Source of the DNA: a phage
Direction: 5' to 3' (one strand)
Assembly: GCA_027263115.1 (NCBI GenBank)
Contig: GCA_027263115.1_3656.1
Length of the DNA: 64,000 bases
In this document: one piece after another, positions 1 to 58,338 of the stretch
Position numbering within the stretch: the stretch's first letter is position 1
Layout: every line of letters begins with the position of its first letter
Made by a program: the position numbers and the translations under genes
Notes under the pieces: model-generated
What the model was told of the DNA's origin: nothing
The model's input: the letters and a program-made list of their open reading frames with translations, nothing else
The model's database searches: none

Positions 1-263
1 ACACCGATGCGGAAAACAATATCTGCTGGGAGTTCGAAACTGAAGATATCCATAAACTTTTCACCTTCCTAGGTATTAAGGTTGAGGCCAAGTTTGAAGA
101 AGGCGAGTGCGACGATTGTGGATTCTACGAGGTAACAGATTTCTATCTCCCAAGTGGTGAGAACCTTTACTATGAAAGCCACTTCGGCAACTCAAATATG
201 CCACAAGGTTGGGATGAGTTTTTTGAAATTGCGGAAGAGGAGCTGACATACCGTGATTATTGA
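1..263 (+). CDS. hypothetical protein, C-terminal fragment (gene begins upstream of window)
   Basis: Open frame from window edge to TGA at 261-263, no internal stop. Confidence 0.45.
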   Translation, partial: TDAENNICWEFETEDIHKLFTFLGIKVEAKFEEGECDDCGFYEVTDFYLPSGENLYYESHFGNSNMPQGWDEFFEIAEEELTYRDY

Positions 264-711
264 TACTGTAGCGGGAGATTTAATCTCCCTTTTTAAGAGC
301 GGTGCTGGTCACCTGATCCACGGTTGTAACTGCTTTCATACAATGGGTGCAGGCATAGCGAAAGATATTGCCCGTGAGTTCCCTCAAGCACTGGCAGCCG
401 ACAAAGAGACTGCCTATGGTAATCTGGACAAGCTGGGTATGTTTTCTTGTTGGGAGCATTTTGCCAAGAACAGGGTCGTATATGGAATCAACCTGTATAC
501 CCAGTTCTACCCAGGGCCCAATGCTGAATACTTCTCAATAATGAAAGGTTTTGAGCGAGTCAACGAGGTATTCAAAGGTGTGTCATTGCCGTTCTACATT
601 CCTAAAATTGGATGCGGTATTGGCGGTCTAAAGTGGGAACATGTAGAAGATGTAATTAATCTTGCAACCACAGATATTGATGTGGTTGTAGTAGAGTACA
701 AAAAGTGTTGA
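253..711 (+). CDS. macro-domain-like protein (ADP-ribose binding/processing fold)
   Basis: 152 aa, GTG start after GAGGAG; Gly-rich segments HGCNCFHTMGAGIAKDIAREFP and PKIGCGIGG resemble macrodomain loops. Confidence 0.6.
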   Translation: MIIDTVAGDLISLFKSGAGHLIHGCNCFHTMGAGIAKDIAREFPQALAADKETAYGNLDKLGMFSCWEHFAKNRVVYGINLYTQFYPGPNAEYFSIMKGFERVNEVFKGVSLPFYIPKIGCGIGGLKWEHVEDVINLATTDIDVVVVEYKKC

Positions 712-2540: not shown

Positions 2541-2850
2541 TATTTTAAGTTATCAGGTTGCCAGAGATCAGGAGGATTTCTAAAATGGATTTCCTCCTTT
2601 TGATATTTTACCTACCAGGATATTTTAAAATCCTTAGAAAATCAGAAAATGGATCGAAAACTAAAATGGATTTTTCAGAGCAGGCACGACGAGATGAACC
2701 ACTCATCCTATCGTCTGCACCATATTCCAGACCACCATTACAGATTTCCCGCACATGCTCACACCCTTCTACTAGAACTTCCCCCACTTACCCTTGACCT
2801 TTTATAGTAATAATCCAACCACTACCTTGAAGTTGTGGCGCAGCTTTCCA

Positions 2851-2938
2851 AGTACTCGATCTGTTTTTCGTTTCAAAGATTGAATTTTCTGAAAATTTTT
2901 CTCGATAAATTTCTCAGTACTCGATCTGTTTTTCGTTT
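2851..2938. repeat. direct repeat pair (22 bp AGTACTCGATCTGTTTTTCGTTT x2) in ORF-poor T-rich segment
   Basis: Identical copies at about 2851-2873 and 2916-2938, surrounded by related tttcgtttt / aaatggattt motifs. Confidence 0.6.
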
Positions 2939-3554
2939 TCTGAATCTGATTTTCTGGAAATCGTTCCGGCTCTCGACCTGAAATTTTTGGGGACGAAATC
3001 GATTTTTCGTTTTCAGAAATGGATTTTTAAAATTTCTATATGGGAATATTTTAGTGGATACTATTTTATAGGAAATTGTTACGGAGGGTAATTAGCGTGC
3101 TAATTAAATTTATTAAATGCGAGGAGTTCTCATTTAGAATTTTGAATGATAATCATTCTCGTTTGCAGAATAACGGGCAGGCCCGGTGATTGTCTCCCGG
3201 CCCCTACTGCCCCGGCTTGTTATTATAGTAACACACAGGACAAAGAAAGCAAGAAGTTTTTGCATAAATTTTTAGACGATAATGATAATCGTTCTCATTT
3301 CATGCAGCGCCCATCCCCGGTGGTTGTCTCCCCCGTCACCGGTGCCTGCCGTCCTTTCGATAGGTATATTTTGCCACCTGGCGGGGCCGCTGTCAACACT
3401 TTTCAAAAAAATTTCTAACCTGATGCGCTGACCGCTGCAACCTGGCGGGGCCAGCCTGGCAGGGCCTAACTGACCAGGTAGGAGAGAATGAAGGCTTGCA
3501 AACCTGGTGGGCCTATGCTATAGGATAGGTAACAATTGAAGAGGAGGTACAAAA

Positions 3555-4558: not shown

Positions 4559-4954
4559 ATGAATAAGAACGTACGCCGCATCATGAACGAACTGGCAAAC
4601 GATGAAAAAATTATTGACATGCATTTATTCAACATTTGCCGCCGTTGTGTAACATATAACAACCGCGCCGCAAAAGCGCGTGAGATGAATGCGAAAGGCA
4701 CCTTAAAGCCCTTTCAGGTGGTTGTAAAATCTATAACCAGTGCAGCAGGCCAGGCGCATGACCACAACAACGAGAGCGCTAATATTGATCCGTCTTACGT
4801 AATGAAACGGATCCGGACTTGCAAGAATAAAGAGCAGGTGTATAACGTCATAGATTGGCTGGACTCCCTGGGTGATGTGGTTTACAATAGGTTTTCTGCA
4901 GCTATCGAGATCCAGCTTGACAGATTGGACGGGAAAGTACTGAAAACTTACTGA
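4559..4954 (+). CDS. hypothetical protein
   Basis: 131 aa, SD AAAGGAAAAAG. Confidence 0.6.
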   Translation: MNKNVRRIMNELANDEKIIDMHLFNICRRCVTYNNRAAKAREMNAKGTLKPFQVVVKSITSAAGQAHDHNNESANIDPSYVMKRIRTCKNKEQVYNVIDWLDSLGDVVYNRFSAAIEIQLDRLDGKVLKTY

Positions 4955-4955
4955 G

Positions 4956-5001
4956 TTTATTTTTAGATGGCCTTGACTCCAGGGCCATCAATAAAGTAAA
5001 C
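4956..5001. repeat. 46-bp intergenic repeat element, copy 1 (TTTATTTTTAGATGGCCTTGACTCCAGGGCCATCAATAAAGTAAAC)
   Basis: Near-identical copies at 5575-5620 and 9310-9355; contains ATGGCC/GGCCAT inverted repeat and TTGACT box. Confidence 0.7.
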
Positions 5002-5033
5002 TAACCACAGTTGAGCGGAAAGGGGGCTTAAAG

Positions 5034-5153
5034 ATGAGTACTACACGCCAGCACACAAAGGTAACTATTATCGTTTGCATCATTGGTTACATCCTGGCGC
5101 AAATGTTGATGGGTAGCGCCAACGGTATCGCAAAATTTTTCTTAAACTTTTAA
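5034..5153 (+). CDS. small hydrophobic peptide (39 aa)
   Basis: ATG after AAGGGGG; single TM-like helix; paralog-like to the 11513 peptide (shared S-x-NGI motif). Confidence 0.4.
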   Translation: MSTTRQHTKVTIIVCIIGYILAQMLMGSANGIAKFFLNF

Positions 5154-5181
5154 TTGACAAGCTAACTTAGATCAGTATACT
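5154..5181 (+). promoter_or_regulatory. sigma70-type promoter TTGACA-N16-TATACT
   Basis: Hexamers followed by GGGAA/TTCCC leader hairpin. Confidence 0.5.
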
Positions 5182-5231
5182 AAACACATAAACGGGAAAA
5201 CTTCCCAGAACACACAAAAGGAGAAAACACC

Positions 5232-5573
5232 ATGACTACTATGACCGCCGCAGAAAAAGCTATGCAGATCGCCGCGCTGAAAAAACAGATCGCAGACCTT
5301 GAGAATAAGATCGATAACTTTGAAATCGACGAGGACAAGTACGACGAAAACTATGATGAATGGTTAGACGAGATCTACGGCGAAATTATGATCGGAAACA
5401 TTTCTTTTCTTCCGTCGCGTATCCTCAAGGAGCTAGATCCTATCGCTTACCGCTGCGGATTTAGCGACTACATCGACAGCTTGGATATTGAGGACGATGA
5501 AGAATACCAGGAATTGCATACAGAGCTTGAAGAAGTGAAAGAAGAGCTTGCAGAACTGGAAGAAAACGAGTAA
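5232..5573 (+). CDS. highly acidic coiled-coil protein (DNA-mimic candidate)
   Basis: 113 aa, SD AAGGAG; roughly one third Asp/Glu with heptad-like N-terminus. Confidence 0.6.
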   Translation: MTTMTAAEKAMQIAALKKQIADLENKIDNFEIDEDKYDENYDEWLDEIYGEIMIGNISFLPSRILKELDPIAYRCGFSDYIDSLDIEDDEEYQELHTELEEVKEELAELEENE

Positions 5574-5574
5574 A

Positions 5575-5620
5575 TTTATTTTTAGATGGCCTTGACTCCA
5601 GGGCCATCAATAAAGTAAAC
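5575..5620. repeat. 46-bp intergenic repeat element, copy 2
   Basis: Identical to copy 1 over about 46 bp. Confidence 0.7.
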
Positions 5621-5662
5621 TTTATACTGTTAACACTGAACTAATGCATAGGAGTTAAAACC

Positions 5663-5908
5663 ATGGCAGCACTAATCACCAAATATTATGCCCCTACCAA
5701 CACCAAAAGCGCCCGTATCATGGTAAAAGGCTTCGGACGTAAAAAGGTTTACACCTGGGATTATGCCTTAGACACGGAAGACAACTACACCAACGCGATG
5801 ACCGATTTTATTAATGACCTGAACACGCGGATCTTGACAAATTATCAAATTACCGATATTGCCTATATAGGGGAAGGCGGGATCTGTTTTGTCGGTATCG
5901 TCAAATAA
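5663..5908 (+). CDS. hypothetical protein
   Basis: 81 aa, SD TAGGAG. Confidence 0.55.
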   Translation: MAALITKYYAPTNTKSARIMVKGFGRKKVYTWDYALDTEDNYTNAMTDFINDLNTRILTNYQITDIAYIGEGGICFVGIVK

Positions 5909-5983
5909 GCTGGTTTTTCGGTGGTCCTGGTAGCAGGGCCATCTATAAAGATAGTTTATCAACACAATGAAAGGAGAAAGTAC

Positions 5984-7096: not shown

Positions 7097-7720
7097 ATGA
7101 CCACCGTTAACATTACCACAGGTTGCAATTTATCTTTCGACGTGCTGACCGACGAACAAAAAGAAAAAGCTATTGAAATGGTCCGCGAAAGAGAAGAACA
7201 CAGCGGAGAGGATTTTTTCGCAGAAAGTGTAATTGAATATTATAAAGAACAAGTTTTTCCAGAGTACGGCCTTGAAGATACCGATGTACATTGGTCCGGC
7301 TTTTGGTGCCAGGGTGACGGCGCGTCAATCAGTGCTGAAAACGTGGATTTAGAAAAATTCTTGCGTAAAGTAAAGGCCCTGACCAAGTTCCGATCAATTC
7401 GTCACTTGTTTGGCACAATGCACGATGGCGAGTTATCAGCCAGTATTGAACGCGACAAGTACAGCCATTACAGCCATGAAAACACTGTAAGCGGATACAT
7501 TGATACCACCTGGCTAGATCTGACCGCCAAACAAGAAAACAAAGTGGAAGACCTGGAAGAGCTGATCACCGAGACGGTACGGGAGCTATCCCGCAAGGTT
7601 TACGTAGACCTGGAGGAGGCCTATCTAGAACAGTTCACTACCGAAAACCTGATCGGCCTTATTGAGGCCAATGATTGGCGGTTTGATGTGGATGAATATG
7701 GAGAGATGAGTTTTTCATAA
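7097..7720 (+). CDS. acidic hypothetical protein (207 aa)
   Basis: Largest early ORF; SD CAGGAG; Asp/Glu-rich. Confidence 0.65.
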   Translation: MTTVNITTGCNLSFDVLTDEQKEKAIEMVREREEHSGEDFFAESVIEYYKEQVFPEYGLEDTDVHWSGFWCQGDGASISAENVDLEKFLRKVKALTKFRSIRHLFGTMHDGELSASIERDKYSHYSHENTVSGYIDTTWLDLTAKQENKVEDLEELITETVRELSRKVYVDLEEAYLEQFTTENLIGLIEANDWRFDVDEYGEMSFS

Positions 7721-9106: not shown

Positions 9107-9307
9107 ATGAGCAACAATATCCGCGTTATTAACTTCAAAAAAGAAGAAAAAATTGCCGTGCTGATTGACGGTCAAGAAATCTTCAAGGGCTATTATGAAG
9201 ATCATCAAACGGCGATTAGTATCACTCGCGTGATTGGTTACCATAATTTTTACCCCCAAGGCGCTGAGGCGGCGGTTAAACGAATCAAAGAGATTGTAGG
9301 CCTGTAA
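9107..9307 (+). CDS. hypothetical protein
   Basis: 66 aa, SD AAAGGAGAAA. Confidence 0.55.
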   Translation: MSNNIRVINFKKEEKIAVLIDGQEIFKGYYEDHQTAISITRVIGYHNFYPQGAEAAVKRIKEIVGL

Positions 9308-9309
9308 AA

Positions 9310-9355
9310 TTTATTTTTAGATGGCCTTGACTTCAGGGCCATCAATAAAGTAAAT
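9310..9355. repeat. 46-bp intergenic repeat element, copy 3
   Basis: Two mismatches relative to copies 1 and 2. Confidence 0.65.
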
Positions 9356-9391
9356 TTAAACCCTGTTAAAAGACCACGCAGTTAACAAGGA

Positions 9392-12770: not shown

Positions 12771-13043
12771 ATGTCAAGCTGGATTAATCAAGAAGTCGAA
12801 TCACGTTTTAATGCTATATGGGATCTCATCGAAAAAGAGGACGGAACATCAAGCCCCTACCTCAACAATTTGGAATTCCATTTTGTGGAAGCGATGAACG
12901 CAGAACATGATCACGAAGGTGGCGCGGATGAGTTCGCTAAAGGTTATGGCTTTAACAATGCCAACGAAATGATCGAGGCGGTTGTACTCCAGGCTGAGGA
13001 AGATTATCAATTAAAAACGCTTGAATTCTGCCGCCGTAAGTAA
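12771..13043 (+). CDS. acidic hypothetical protein
   Basis: 90 aa, SD AGGAGAGAGG. Confidence 0.6.
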   Translation: MSSWINQEVESRFNAIWDLIEKEDGTSSPYLNNLEFHFVEAMNAEHDHEGGADEFAKGYGFNNANEMIEAVVLQAEEDYQLKTLEFCRRK

Positions 13044-14270: not shown

Positions 14271-14877
14271 TCTGATCTTCCCCCTACCATAAACGGCCCT
14301 ACCTGGCAAGTGGAATAATTGACGAGCCATCAACCCCACACACTGTACAAATATACATGTAAAATAACTATTGCATAACTTTTCATTGTGTGGTAGCAGG
14401 GCTATTTTTACCCGTTTTTCCTTCCAAAATTGCACGTAATGCAGCTATTGCACAAAATTTAACCTGATGCATATCTTCAGTGTCTTGTCAACAACTAAAA
14501 ATCTTTATAAGTCATGCACTTACATAACCACAAAAGCGTGCTCTACGTGAAAAATCGAGTATAACTATAGCCGCCAGATCTCAGAATTTACGTACGCTCA
14601 CCATTCTATAGTCTGCTAAGTATTTATTCCAACCATAGAATAACGGAATAGTCAATACCTGCATAAAATAATTATTCGTGTAAACTGCATAACATAAATC
14701 AGCTTAGGTGTCAACATTTTTCGTAAACAGTCTGAAATTATCACGATGAGTTATCATAAACAGAGAAATCTTTAGTCGTCTAATGTTTACTGTACGTTAC
14801 TATACTAACTGAAATCATTAGATGACTAATAGAAAGATAAGAAATAATTAACAATACAATTATTTTATCTGTAACAA

Positions 14878-15165
14878 TAAGGCAACTATGCAAACGAATG
14901 GCATGGCGCGACGGAGTCGCGACATAATATAAAAGCAGTAACCATCACCCCCGTGATAGTTTGTCTGCAATCTATTAATCAGATCATAGTTGCCTTGTAT
15001 TTAGTTAATCATGACATAACAAGCAAGGCAACTATAGATCTGCTAATAGTTGCCCTGCTTTTATATTATGTCATAGGAACGCCCGAAGGGGTGACCTAGT
15101 CACCTGGCATAGCCAGCGAAAGATTATTAACTTGGTAATAGTTATCATGCAAACGAATGGCATGG
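14878..15165. repeat. nested palindromic region: 18-bp inverted repeat (about 14921-14938 vs 15055-15072), 19-bp direct repeat ATGCAAACGAATGGCATGG x2, AGGCAACTAT/ATAGTTGCC inverted copies
   Basis: Reverse complements and direct copies read directly in the sequence; no ORF with a ribosome-binding site. Confidence 0.65.
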
Positions 15166-15179
15166 CTTATCATCTCTGT

Positions 15180-15420
15180 GTAAACAGTCAATCATGTAAA
15201 CTATTAGATATGTAAACAGTAAAGGGCGTGAACAGTAAGCGAGGGAATAGTAATAGCGTGAATAGTGACAGCGTAAACAGTGACAGCGTAAACAGTCAGG
15301 CATGTCAATTATGTCATATTGTGTCACCATTATGTCACTATTGTGTCACCAGTATGCCCAGTATGTCAATTGAGTCTAAAGTGTCAAAGGTGTCAGACAA
15401 GTTTTTCTCCTCTTTGTCAA
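15180..15420. repeat. tandem short-repeat arrays (GTAAACAGT family incl. 15-mer TGACAGCGTAAACAG x2; then 22-bp TTATGTCAYTATTGTGTCACCA x2 with further TGTCA units)
   Basis: Direct reading; track ORFs here are low-complexity artefacts of the repeats. Confidence 0.7.
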
Positions 15421-16866
15421 GTGCTGCATGAAAAATTTACAAGCTTGTATGGTAGCATTTTTGCGGCCCGTTTACATTCAGTGATGTATGTATAACCCTT
15501 GTTGTGTGGGAGTTTAGACGTCTAGACGGTTGGAAGTCTGCAGGTCAATATCTAATCTATCGGCTGCTAACTATATCCCACACAAATAGTAAGAAATATA
15601 ATTGTTATATGTGTAAACAGTAACTCATGTTATCAATCCCTGTATGGATCGCCAGTGGTGCGCATAATGGGTATTATGTTAAATTGCCCGTAATGATAAC
15701 AGTTCTCACAATGATAGGTATTCTCATTCATCCACACAAAATAGGTTGCAAATGTTGTGCCACTGTGTGAACGGCCTGGCCTATTAATTTCTCTCACTGC
15801 CTCGATATTTGAGGATTGTTATAAGAATGAGAAGTATTCCCATTCCGTCCGCCTGGCAGCGCTCCTGTAGGTCCTGCAAGGACTCTAGCTGAAAGCTAGA
15901 CCCTTCGGGCCTCCCTGTAGGTCAGGTCAAAATCGTGGCAGAACTGAGCCTGTTCAGATATTTCTGGCTGACTCTTCAGGTCTGTGTGGGAAAAGCCAAC
16001 CTCTCCGGCGGGGCAGGGGAGGGAGGTAAATTAAAAAATTTACGTGGTGTATGAAGCGCTCTTCAGGTAAGGCAGGTATTATGTGATGAAACCCTCTTCA
16101 GGCAATGATATTTGTGGGTGTGATATTTGCTGGAAAGCCAGATATGACGGGACTCCCGGCGGGGCAGGGGTAGTACAGACGGGGGAAATATGGGGATGTA
16201 GTTGGGGAAATTGATCAGGCAGGTAGAGTATGGAATATGTTACAAGTATGTTAAATATGGAGGTTGAATATCTGTAGGATTTGTGTGTAAAATCAAAGAC
16301 TTAAGTGGTGTTGTGGTATTTTCTATAAATAATTCAAGTTTAATAGGTAATATTTGCCTCTATCCACTTTGTGTGGTAAACAGATTCAGATGAGATTAGT
16401 TTACAAGTGTATACATAATATACAAATTAAAGATACAAGAAACCCCCCTCCCCCCTTCGGCTACCATTCACCTTTTCCTCTGACTGGTACTTAAACACTT
16501 ATTCAGACTCTTCAGGTTATCACCCATATATCATATGGCAGTGACTGGTGTCCTCCGGCCCCTCTTTCGTCACCCGTCCGCTTCGCCATGCTAATGCCAT
16601 AGCTAATGGTTCGGTTGTTCACCCTGTTCACTCAGGTGTATCTCTATACCCCTTCAAACCGAAGAGAACAGAAAACCCGAATTACTCGGTAAAAGAAAAG
16701 AGAAGAACTTAATTTTATCAGGATAGGCAAGAATGTCAAGGCATGACTGCTCACTAAACAAGCAAACAGTCATGTGTGGGAGGTAAGTGATTGTGGTGGT
16801 AGGAAATTTAGTTGAAAGATGTGTTATAGGTGCTTCCAGCACTTTAGCCGGGCAGCTAATTGTGTG

Positions 16867-17203: not shown

Positions 17204-17416
17204 TCATAGTCTACCACCTCTGAACTCTTCGTGCTCAGGCATAATAGAGAACCAGATATCTACGATGTCCTCCCACGTCAGGTCATCAGCCTCAGGATCT
17301 GTCTGGGACGAAGATGAAGAGTCCTCAGAATCTAAGTTTTCCTCTTTAACTGGCTCATCCAAGGGACATATGGTCACTCCTTCGGATGTCTCTTCAGATG
17401 CATGTGTGTTGATCAT
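17204..17416 (-). CDS. small acidic hypothetical protein
   Basis: 70 aa, weak SD GGGTGG; very Asp/Glu/Ser-rich. Confidence 0.4.
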   Translation of the reverse strand: MINTHASEETSEGVTICPLDEPVKEENLDSEDSSSSSQTDPEADDLTWEDIVDIWFSIMPEHEEFRGGRL

Positions 17417-31896: not shown

Positions 31897-31960
31897 TTGG
31901 CACCTCCTCTGCTTTCATTTTACGATAATTATACCTATCTAAACAAAGCTTTGTCAACAG

Positions 31961-57526: not shown

Positions 57527-57601
57527 GCCCTGTTAGCTTAGTGGATAAAGCAGCGGCCTTCTAAGCCGTTGACACTGGTTCGAGTCCAGTACGGGGTGCC
57601 A
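57527..57601 (+). tRNA. tRNA-Arg (anticodon TCT)
   Basis: Hand-folded cloverleaf: 7-bp acceptor, D-arm GCTT/AAGC, anticodon loop CTTCTAA, T-loop TTCGAGT, encoded CCA. Confidence 0.75.
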
Positions 57602-57605
57602 AATT

Positions 57606-57692
57606 GGGGAGTTATCCCGTAGAGGTAGCGGTGTAGACTGTAAATCTATTGTCATTGCGACTCGGGTGGTTCGACTCCACCACTCCCCACCA
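57606..57692 (+). tRNA. tRNA-Tyr (anticodon GTA), long variable arm
   Basis: Acceptor GGGGAGT/ACTCCCC, anticodon loop CTGTAAA, T-loop TTCGACT, CCA; 87 nt. Confidence 0.65.
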
Positions 57693-57805
57693 AATTTATA
57701 TTTTAGATGCATAAATAATACAGATAATGGCATTGATATTTATCGTCGTTTATACTAGTCACTAACTGCTCGAAAATCAGTGTCATTATCAGTATAATTT
57801 ACAAA

Positions 57806-57896
57806 GGAGGGTAGGGAGCAATGGTGCTCAAGCGGTCTTGAAAACCGTCCCATTGAGGATGACTCGATGATGGTTCGATTCCATTACTCTCCGCCA
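57806..57896 (+). tRNA. tRNA-Ser (anticodon TGA), long variable arm
   Basis: Acceptor GGAGGGT/ACTCTCC, anticodon loop CTTGAAA, T-loop TTCGATT, CCA; 91 nt. Confidence 0.65.
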
Positions 57897-57994
57897 CATT
57901 GTTGACCTTGTAATTAAGCGAAAGCCGGAAGCAGAACCGGATTATCAAATGTTACAGTCGTCATCGCCGACTAGCAACATGGTCAACATACTGA

Positions 57995-58093
57995 GCTAGG
58001 TAAGCCCTTTGGCAAGGGCGAGGATTTTTAATCCTGAAAATAGACGAGGTAGTCGTTGAATACATAGATGGTTCGATTCCATCACCTAGCACC
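57995..58093 (+). tRNA. atypical tRNA-like element (possible tRNA-Lys TTT with about 25-nt insertion, or pseudo-tRNA)
   Basis: Perfect 7-bp acceptor GCTAGGT/ACCTAGC, canonical T-arm GATGG-TTCGATT-CCATC, D-arm GCCC/GGGC, TTT-containing loop; about 99 nt; no encoded CCA. Confidence 0.35.
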
Positions 58094-58098
58094 TTTTT

Positions 58099-58174
58099 GC
58101 TGATGTAGCACAATTGGTAGTGCAATTGATTTGTAATCAATAGGTTGCAGGTTCAAGTCCTGCCATCAGCACCA
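58099..58174 (+). tRNA. tRNA-Thr (anticodon TGT)
   Basis: Acceptor GCTGATG/CATCAGC, D-arm GCAC/GTGC, anticodon loop TTTGTAA, T-loop TTCAAGT, CCA. Confidence 0.75.
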
Positions 58175-58175
58175 T

Positions 58176-58250
58176 GGCCCTGTAGCTGGAAGGTTCAAGC
58201 AAGCGACTCATAATCGCCAGACGGTGGTTCAATTCCACCCAGGGCCACCA
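58176..58250 (+). tRNA. tRNA-Met or tRNA-Ile2 (anticodon CAT), elongator-type
   Basis: Acceptor GGCCCTG/CAGGGCC with paired 1-72, anticodon loop CTCATAA, T-loop TTCAATT, CCA. Confidence 0.65.
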
Positions 58251-58261
58251 AATAGTAGATA

Positions 58262-58338
58262 CTCCGCGTAGCTCAGCTTGGTAGAGCGCCTGATTTGGGA
58301 TCAGGAGGTCGAGTGTTCGAATCACTCCGTGGAGACCA
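58262..58338 (+). tRNA. tRNA-Pro (anticodon TGG)
   Basis: C1-G72 acceptor, D-arm GCTC-AGCTTGGTAG-AGC, anticodon loop TTTGGGA, T-loop TTCGAAT, CCA. Confidence 0.75.

Follow-up and report, generated by a model that had tools for sequence, protein, structure and literature searches.

A strongly acidic protein of 113 amino acids (aa), encoded at 5232..5573 (+) of the 64,000-nucleotide (nt) phage contig GCA_027263115.1_3656.1 (referred to as the window throughout its full length), was found to belong to a very large phage-specific domain family with a conserved polyanionic character. The gene had already been catalogued as hypothetical; the domain make-up of this PHROG 9294-related family, its size and the conservation of its acidity are new here. 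The gene is real. Documented below are its composition and predicted architecture, the size and distribution of the family, the early-type signals, the polymorphism of the cassette and the absence of any homology to Ocr or ArdA; from these we infer its mode of action and target. Tentatively, and at somewhat less than an even chance, the gene is read as a non-essential, early, stand-alone effector whose product would act stoichiometrically, as a polyanionic decoy for a nucleic-acid-binding protein of the host.

The region around the gene is 95–97% identical to more than 100 Vequintavirus (rV5-like) Escherichia coli myovirus genomes, e.g., BP9, AlexBoehm/Bas56 and LL12, and on nucleotide comparison the window is assigned to a Vequintavirus, an rV5-like coliphage. 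The open reading frame (ORF) starts with ATG and comprises 113 codons plus a stop codon; its counterpart in phage AlexBoehm is bas56_0103, labeled 'hypothetical protein'. The product matched PHROG 9294 over its full length (residues 1–113, E = 7.1e-54), and 72 word-indexed homologues and 3,659 hidden Markov model (HMM) matches were recovered, for which reasons the gene is considered real. Asp and Glu account for 35 of the 113 residues (31%) and Lys and Arg for 9 (8%), giving a net charge of −26, which makes this the most acidic of the 122 ATG-started ORFs of at least 80 aa in the window. An initial reading of the letters alone (the sequence-only reading) had described a product of about one third Asp/Glu with a helical, heptad-like N-terminus; the first of these points is confirmed by the counts just given and the second by the structural and family data that follow.

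The protein was modeled with AlphaFold2 using a 37-sequence alignment (predicted local distance difference test score, pLDDT, 90.4), and the predicted elements were a helix at residues 6–28, a helix at 34–49, a beta-hairpin at 52–59, helices at 61–68 and 70–83, and a helix at 90–111; a model of the core alone (residues 34–88) reached a pLDDT of 90.9. The two flanking heptad helices are paired antiparallel into a hairpin by AlphaFold; in the predicted fold they form a coiled-coil stalk that carries the small, conserved alpha/beta core. No enzyme-like fold was seen in these confident models (pLDDT ~90). As delimited from AlphaFold2, the family profile and regional charge, the N-terminal amphipathic heptad helix (residues 6–28) corresponds to 5247..5315 (+) and the C-terminal heptad helix (residues 90–111) to 5499..5564 (+), while the conserved core mini-domain (helix, beta-hairpin, helix, helix; residues 34–84), which is common to all family members, corresponds to 5331..5483 (+).

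Position-wise conservation was taken from a profile over 175 diverse family members. The part common to all relatives in the alignments is a core of ~45 residues with the pattern YDxxLDExYG...SRxLKELDPIAYRCGxSDY, and by its full-length profile match together with this motif the protein is a member of the PHROG 9294 / 'LKELDPIAYRCG' core family. D69 is invariant in the profile, and Y41, L45, D46, E47, S62, L65, P70, A72, Y73, C75, G76, D79 and Y80 are kept in 82–100% of the 175 members when conservative substitutions are counted; a separate family alignment (A2) shows no variation at D69, Y73, C75 or D79. The core also has two conserved basic residues, K66 and R74. Judged by their places in the predicted secondary structure, S62, D69, P70, Y41, Y73, Y80, C75 and G76 could be helix caps and buried aromatics. 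Outside the core, the hydrophobic residues at heptad positions a and d are conserved in the N-terminal helix (6, 9, 13, 16, 20, 23, 27 and 30), which together with the predicted helix 6–28 upholds the heptad-like N-terminus mentioned above, and the C-terminal helix follows a strict a/d heptad (92, 95, 99, 102, 106 and 109).

The charge is distributed unevenly along the protein and is a property of the family. Residues 1–30 contain four Asp/Glu and four Lys/Arg, so that the N-terminal helix is of mixed charge. In the C-terminal helix most non-a/d positions are 60–80% Asp/Glu across the family (range 6–78%) and most positions have at most 8% Lys/Arg; positions 31, 38, 39, 43, 46, 47, 85, 88, 91 and 94, several of which belong to the first core helix or the linkers, are 68–85% acidic. 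Asp and Glu are predicted to make up almost all of the solvent-exposed residues of the stalk, especially in the C-terminal helix and in the first helix of the core. Among 219 members the median content is 31% Asp/Glu and 7.8% Lys/Arg, and this family-wide conservation marks the acidity as a selected property rather than a quirk of one ORF. The core also occurs alone in proteins of 64–68 aa, in tandem copies within larger proteins, fused to a Kyano_Gp96 module and fused to CxxC-rich tails.

An exhaustive HMM search returned 3,659 cluster representatives at E ≤ 1e-3, of which 1,763 were retained at E ≤ 1e-10. The core is matched by PHROGs 9294, 9396 and 37123, none of which carries a functional annotation, and no Pfam model covers it. 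Pfam, NCBIfam and PADLOC scans of the acidic protein and 78 members gave sub-threshold coiled-coil matches only, among which GvpG, HalX, Occludin_ELL and LmuB coiled coil were rejected as composition artefacts; searches of PDB sequences with the protein and with the profile returned designed or natural coiled coils only. Names attached to orthologues ('gas vesicle protein GvpG, partial', 'DNA repair exonuclease SbcCD ATPase subunit', 'predicted nucleic acid-binding Zn-ribbon protein' and 'putative phosphonoacetylaldehyde hydrolase') look like misannotations from coiled-coil or low-complexity matches. No paper describing the family was found in literature on DNA mimics, Vequintavirus, anti-restriction or the motif 'DPIAYR', and rV5-like phages are not mentioned in the accessory-gene screen of Silas et al.

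The family is nearly confined to lytic phages, where its genes always belong to arrays of early or accessory genes. It is present in Vequintaviruses, in phages of Vibrio, Klebsiella, Serratia, Citrobacter and Pseudomonas (Nankokuvirus), podoviruses of Proteus and Providencia, one pelagiphage, phages of Clavibacter, Microbacterium and Gordonia, and marine metagenomic phage contigs. Among 72,556 plasmid records searched with tblastn there was one match, in a 137.5-kb E. coli record that is 70% identical over the core and is probably a misfiled phage genome, and among 185,579 prokaryotic genomes there were only four loci, all in metagenome-assembled genomes. Proteus phage PM16, which is phiKMV-like, carries the homologue as gp02, the second gene at the left end, and has a promoter and terminators annotated for it; pelagiphage HTVC048P has its homologue upstream of the gene for RNA polymerase; and in Vibrio, Klebsiella and Pseudomonas phages the homologue stands amid long arrays of small same-strand hypothetical genes. 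Two tandem paralogues are present at some family loci. A search for conserved neighbors across 12 contexts found none, which suggests that the protein acts alone. Separately, 17 GenBank records of the MG0656xx series that are titled Campylobacter phage (15 of them with C. jejuni given as host) are ~93–97% identical to E. coli Vequintaviruses in the region of the acidic gene and are probably mislabeled or contaminant genomes.

Among the larger proteins with the core are the metagenomic P0155, P0193, P0201, P0135 and P0145 (loci L023–L025), which are 211–559 aa in length and contain two tandem copies of the core each, along with many x-A-E-T/S-F repeats (e.g., MAETFGA, NAETFEA); P0155, P0193 and P0201 also have a C-terminal transmembrane helix. 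Apart from Kyano_Gp96, itself without known function, no informative Pfam or PHROG domain was detected in these five proteins or in P0102. Their contigs are short and the neighboring genes have no PHROG match. The repeated xAE|TF motifs suggested protease-processed, capsid-delivered polyproteins, an idea for which no support was found.

The signals around the gene are those of a host-transcribed early unit. A sigma-70-type promoter, TTGACA-16 nt-TATACT, matching the consensus at 11 of 12 positions, lies at 5154..5181 (+), and a Shine-Dalgarno sequence, AAGGAG, was read directly from the sequence at 5218..5223 (+), with 8 nt between it and the ATG. Across the window, 6 sites fit the strict pattern TTGACA-N16-18-TAYAMT, where 0.17 would be expected; five of them are found at 1.1 to 7.1 kb on the + strand (at 1162, 4017, 5154, 6699 and 7012, before small ORFs of the early block) and one is on the − strand at 31957. 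This excess places the acidic gene within an array of host-type early promoters. Its surroundings are several dozen small + strand genes, nearly all hypothetical, after which comes a − strand block with nucleotide-metabolism genes. Judged by these motifs, host RNA polymerase is expected to transcribe the gene from its own sigma-70-type promoter. The consensus promoter claimed in the sequence-only reading was thus recovered, and its label 'early' agrees with the promoter motifs and with gene position, from which we infer early expression in vivo. The same early block contains a 152-aa ORF at 253-711 (+) that matches the Macro domain PF01661 at 25.9 bits (cut-off 22), named 'O-acetyl-ADP-ribose deacetylase' in BP9; its product could be a candidate counter-defense enzyme against ADP-ribosylating systems.

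The gene lies in a cassette bounded by direct repeats of 51 nt, identified by repeat search at 4953..5003 (+; left boundary) and 5572..5622 (+; right boundary), with a third copy at 9307..9357 and a weaker one at 5907-5957. Between the two boundary repeats lie the acidic ORF together with its promoter, and a hydrophobic ORF of 39 aa, MSTTRQHTKVTIIVCIIGYILAQMLMGSANGIAKFFLNF, at 5034..5153 (+), in the position of bas56_0102 in AlexBoehm. The left repeat contains the GC-rich hairpin GATGGCCTTGACTCCAGGGCCATC at 4966..4989 (+), for which an exact 24-mer search found 3 copies against 0 expected, and a weak promoter-like TTGACT-18-TAAACT (9/12) at 4973..5002 (+). In the right repeat the corresponding hairpin, at 5585..5608 (+) downstream of the acidic gene, consists of a 10-bp GC-rich stem lengthened by an A/U stem (RNA fold −22.5 kcal/mol, z = −4.9) and forms a terminator-like end of the transcription unit. 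In the sister phages magaca and ECP32 a single repeat copy is left and exactly the 619 bp between copies is gone, so that the 39-aa ORF is lost along with the acidic ORF; since both phages lack the cassette, the acidic gene is dispensable for plaque formation. A repeat-flanked cassette missing from two sisters is a typical signature of counter-defense or host-takeover accessory genes.

Comparable arrangements are known from T4-type phages as promoter-early stem-loop (PeSL) regulatory cassettes (Arbiol et al., 2010, PMC2839356; Comeau et al., 2014, PMC4122927). As in those, a short repeated intergenic stem-loop with sigma-70-like motifs occurs in a region rich in small non-essential genes, and insertions or deletions between close relatives end exactly at the repeats: here the repeated stem-loop and putative promoter elements flank non-essential genes and the indel end-points fall at the repeats. 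The differences are that the genome is rV5-like rather than T4-like, that the promoter-like motif in the 51-nt repeat is weak (9/12, with an 18-nt spacer) and that the hairpin of the repeat is without a clean U-tract. No published description of PeSL-like elements in rV5-like phages was found.

Small acidic proteins that imitate DNA are well known in phages and mobile elements. Ocr (gp0.3) is a DNA-mimic inhibitor of type I restriction-modification (R-M), BREX and RNA polymerase; ArdA, carried by plasmids and conjugative transposons, mimics DNA to counter type I restriction; and lambda Gam and T7 gp5.9 are helical acidic DNA mimics that block RecBCD. T7 Ocr (from NC_001604) has 117 aa, with 34 Asp/Glu (29%), 6 Lys/Arg and a net charge of −28, and on its elongated dimer the surface carboxylates are placed like the phosphates of bent B-DNA. 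The acidic protein resembles it in size (113 versus 117 aa), Asp/Glu content (31% versus 29%) and net charge (−26 versus −28), and also in an acidic C-terminal tail, an early gene with a host-type promoter and a phage-only distribution. It is a small protein of pI about 4, with ~30% Asp/Glu and very few basic residues. In contrast, no sequence or profile similarity to Ocr was detected and the core of the acidic family is strongly conserved in sequence. In hhalign, family alignment A2 and T7 Ocr aligned with a probability of 0.12% over 9 columns; no Ocr-like fold was found for the acidic protein; and the Ocr family was absent from the Pfam matches of the protein and 78 members. ArdA (PF07275) gave no match at E ≤ 1 for the acidic protein or at E ≤ 0.01 for the 78 members. 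The likeness to ArdA is that of an acidic, small protein proposed to be an early-acting decoy, but the predicted folds differ and the acidic family is not plasmid-borne (72,556 records, one apparently misfiled phage genome aside). The caution in the sequence-only reading that any likeness to Ocr or ArdA was one of composition only proved apt. Because no profile, Pfam, NCBIfam or PADLOC match links them, the sequence data place the acidic protein outside the Ocr and ArdA families, with functional analogy at most.

With Gam and gp5.9 the protein would share the character of a small, helical, acidic, early, stand-alone inhibitor of a DNA-end or DNA-binding host machine, although neither has detectable homology to the acidic family. 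These two proteins show that the decoy idea need not mean restriction enzymes. T7 gp5.9 is also reported to block MukBEF (PMC7617805).

Plating data for carrier phages in the BASEL collection were re-read from S1 Data and S5 Table of PMC8594841. The Vequintaviruses Bas56–59, whose orthologues are ~96–100% identical in the core region, have 9–15 EcoKI sites and 4–6 EcoCFT_I sites, and they plated at an efficiency of plating (EOP) of 0.06–0.83 on EcoKI and 0.22–1.0 on EcoCFT_I (PMC8594841). On EcoRI their EOP was ~1e-4 to 1e-3, and on EcoRV and EcoCFT_II there were no plaques, one EcoRV replicate excepted (PMC8594841). In the same assay the siphoviruses Bas01 (3 EcoKI sites) and Bas02 (7 sites) had EOPs of ~1e-4 and ~1e-5 (PMC8594841). 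Because EcoRI, EcoRV and EcoCFT_II do restrict Bas56–59, the insensitivity of Vequintaviruses is specific to type I systems, and it fits an Ocr-like function somewhere in their genomes. The phi92-like phages Bas60–62 (12–14 EcoKI sites) and the Felix-O1-like Bas63 (9 sites) are equally type I insensitive (PMC8594841). No core homologue was detected by BLAST in non-Vequintavirus E. coli phage records, and all 94 of the 94 E. coli phage records that matched the core in tblastn were at least 90% identical, i.e., Vequintaviruses; within BASEL, groups without a detectable homologue are therefore resistant too.

Under the favored decoy reading, host RNA polymerase would transcribe the gene early from its own sigma-70-type promoter, and the negatively charged surface of the product would occupy a basic nucleic-acid-binding surface of a host protein and block that protein at the start of infection. 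Candidate targets are a defense nuclease or an R-M/BREX-type complex, RecBCD, a nucleoid protein and RNA polymerase; the conserved core would give fold stability, docking specificity or both. The decoy would thus be a nucleic-acid mimic in a broad sense, with type I R-M as one candidate target among several. A counter-defense or decoy role is indirectly supported by the conserved acidity, by the earliest gene positions in unrelated phages and by accessory-cassette status, as well as by the plating of carrier phages at EOP 0.06–1.0 on type I hosts despite the presence of sites. The decoy reading is also favored by a composition practically that of Ocr and by the Macro-domain gene in the same early block. 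Several points weigh against it. DNA mimics are usually poorly conserved in sequence, and here a very strongly conserved, non-acidic core is found in phages with hosts from Pelagibacter to Actinobacteria, a pattern for which a specific protein-protein module is no worse an explanation than mimicry. Many non-mimic proteins, too, have acidic heptad helices. Ocr, ArdA and Gam are typically elongated dimers, and the a/d-only hydrophobic pattern of the sequence suggests a monomeric hairpin rather than an elongated dimer. As Bas60–63 are insensitive without a BLAST-detectable homologue, the type I phenotype is not assignable to the acidic gene. In the BASEL text, moreover, Vequintavirinae are called 'exceptionally susceptible' to R-M and seem to be without effective protection (PMC8594841); in contrast with that text, several large myovirus groups show unexplained type-I-specific protection.

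The main rival to the decoy reading draws on this unusually high conservation of the core and is a substantial possibility, well below an even chance: the protein would be a host-takeover or regulatory adaptor, with the core as a protein-protein module and the acidic coiled coil serving solubility, spacing or oligomerization only, with no mimicry. Its partner could be, for example, part of the transcription machinery (RNA polymerase or sigma), a factor acting in replication or repair, or another protein of the phage. The core is the sole part common to all members and occurs alone (64–68 aa), in tandem and in fusions; the invariant residues are mostly non-acidic (D69, P70, A72, Y73, C75, G76 and Y80) and are accompanied by the conserved K66 and R74; and a protein target that is itself conserved universally would account for such high conservation among phages of distant phyla. 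However, core-only members are acidic too (P0057 has 15 Asp/Glu versus 3 Lys/Arg in 64 aa), the position-specific depletion of Lys/Arg in the C-terminal helix goes beyond the needs of solubility or coiled-coil pairing, and the predicted fold matches no known interaction domain. The anti-restriction proposal of the sequence-only reading, spelled out here as an Ocr/ArdA-like DNA mimic that would specifically inhibit type I R-M (perhaps also BREX) by occupying the DNA-binding groove, is a reasonable and possible hypothesis but an improbable one. It accords with the Ocr-like size, charge and acidic C-terminus, with the early expression signals and with the behavior of Bas56–59, which resist type I systems but not EcoRI, EcoRV or EcoCFT_II, as an Ocr-like function would produce, while control siphoviruses with 3–7 EcoKI sites drop to 1e-4 to 1e-5. 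It is opposed by the lack of Ocr homology (hhalign 0.12%) and of any ArdA or Ocr Pfam match, by the absence of the family from plasmids and integrative and conjugative elements, where type I anti-restriction genes abound, and by the combination of very diverse phage hosts with a highly conserved core; in addition, Bas60–63 are equally resistant without a detectable homologue, so that other mechanisms must exist and could explain the Vequintaviruses too. A small acidic coiled-coil chaperone or scaffold-like protein helping in morphogenesis, for which T4 gp57A and phi29 gp7 are the comparison cases, would share the small, acidic, helical-hairpin architecture, and weak coiled-coil-level Pfam matches including Phage_scaffold and Prefoldin were seen in a few members. 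These matches are coiled-coil noise below curated cut-offs, the gene stands in the early block under a sigma-70 promoter, distant from structural genes, the homologue in a phiKMV-like genome is second from the left end, and two Vequintaviruses without the gene form plaques; given this early position and dispensability, a morphogenetic role is very improbable.

The sequence-only reading had named three further acidic candidates. Those at 7097..7720 (+) and 12771..13043 (+) stand as real ORFs, with 22% and 21% Asp/Glu, respectively; 17204..17416, by contrast, contains stops on the + strand and is an ORF on the − strand only, where it encodes a 70-aa acidic product (29% Asp/Glu) with a Ser-rich stretch and no family match. 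The 207-aa product of 7097..7720 has no Pfam or PDB relative and belongs to a narrow family, with homologues that are 58–60% identical on contigs of 250–360 kb, possibly jumbo phages. Elsewhere in the window, three copies of a 47–57-nt unit (TTTC..AGTACTCGATCTGTTTTTCGTTT..) spaced by 65–74 nt were found at 2842-3027, in the gap between the ORFs 2558..2797 and 3146..3418. Where the + strand block of genes meets the − strand block, ~2 kb at ~14400-16600 are ORF-poor and of lower GC content (39%) and contain three 28-nt repeats (at 15177, 15285 and 15610); this segment gave no tRNA or Rfam match, its counterpart in BP9 has no coding sequence annotated over ~2.3 kb, and it could be an origin, terminus or regulatory region. 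A cluster of six tRNA genes (Rfam RF00005) lies at 57527-58335 (+).

Ocr, Arn, Gam, gp5.9 and several anti-CRISPRs have all been drawn from small acidic early proteins. Acidic mimics tend toward broad-spectrum inhibition and often trigger back-up defenses (bioRxiv 10.1101/2025.06.06.658234). The BASEL raw data raise the question of how Vequintaviruses, phi92-like phages and Bas63 go unrestricted by two type I systems despite 9–15 sites. In a bolder form that we regard as doubtful, the conserved core with its polyanionic stalk would define a very large, previously unrecognized phage family (~1,800 clusters at 50% identity) of nucleic-acid-mimic decoys with a new fold, extending from pelagiphages to actinophages and coliphages and neutralizing, as infection begins, a DNA-binding function of the host that is universally conserved; if this were true, the decoy family might account for the insensitivity of Vequintaviruses to type I R-M. 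An experimental handle is provided by the clean 619-bp cassette, the natural cassette-less phages and the carriers in the public BASEL collection with its matched defense-expressing hosts. As the family is unusually large, phage-restricted and unannotated, thousands of phage genes would gain an annotation in one step once its target is identified.

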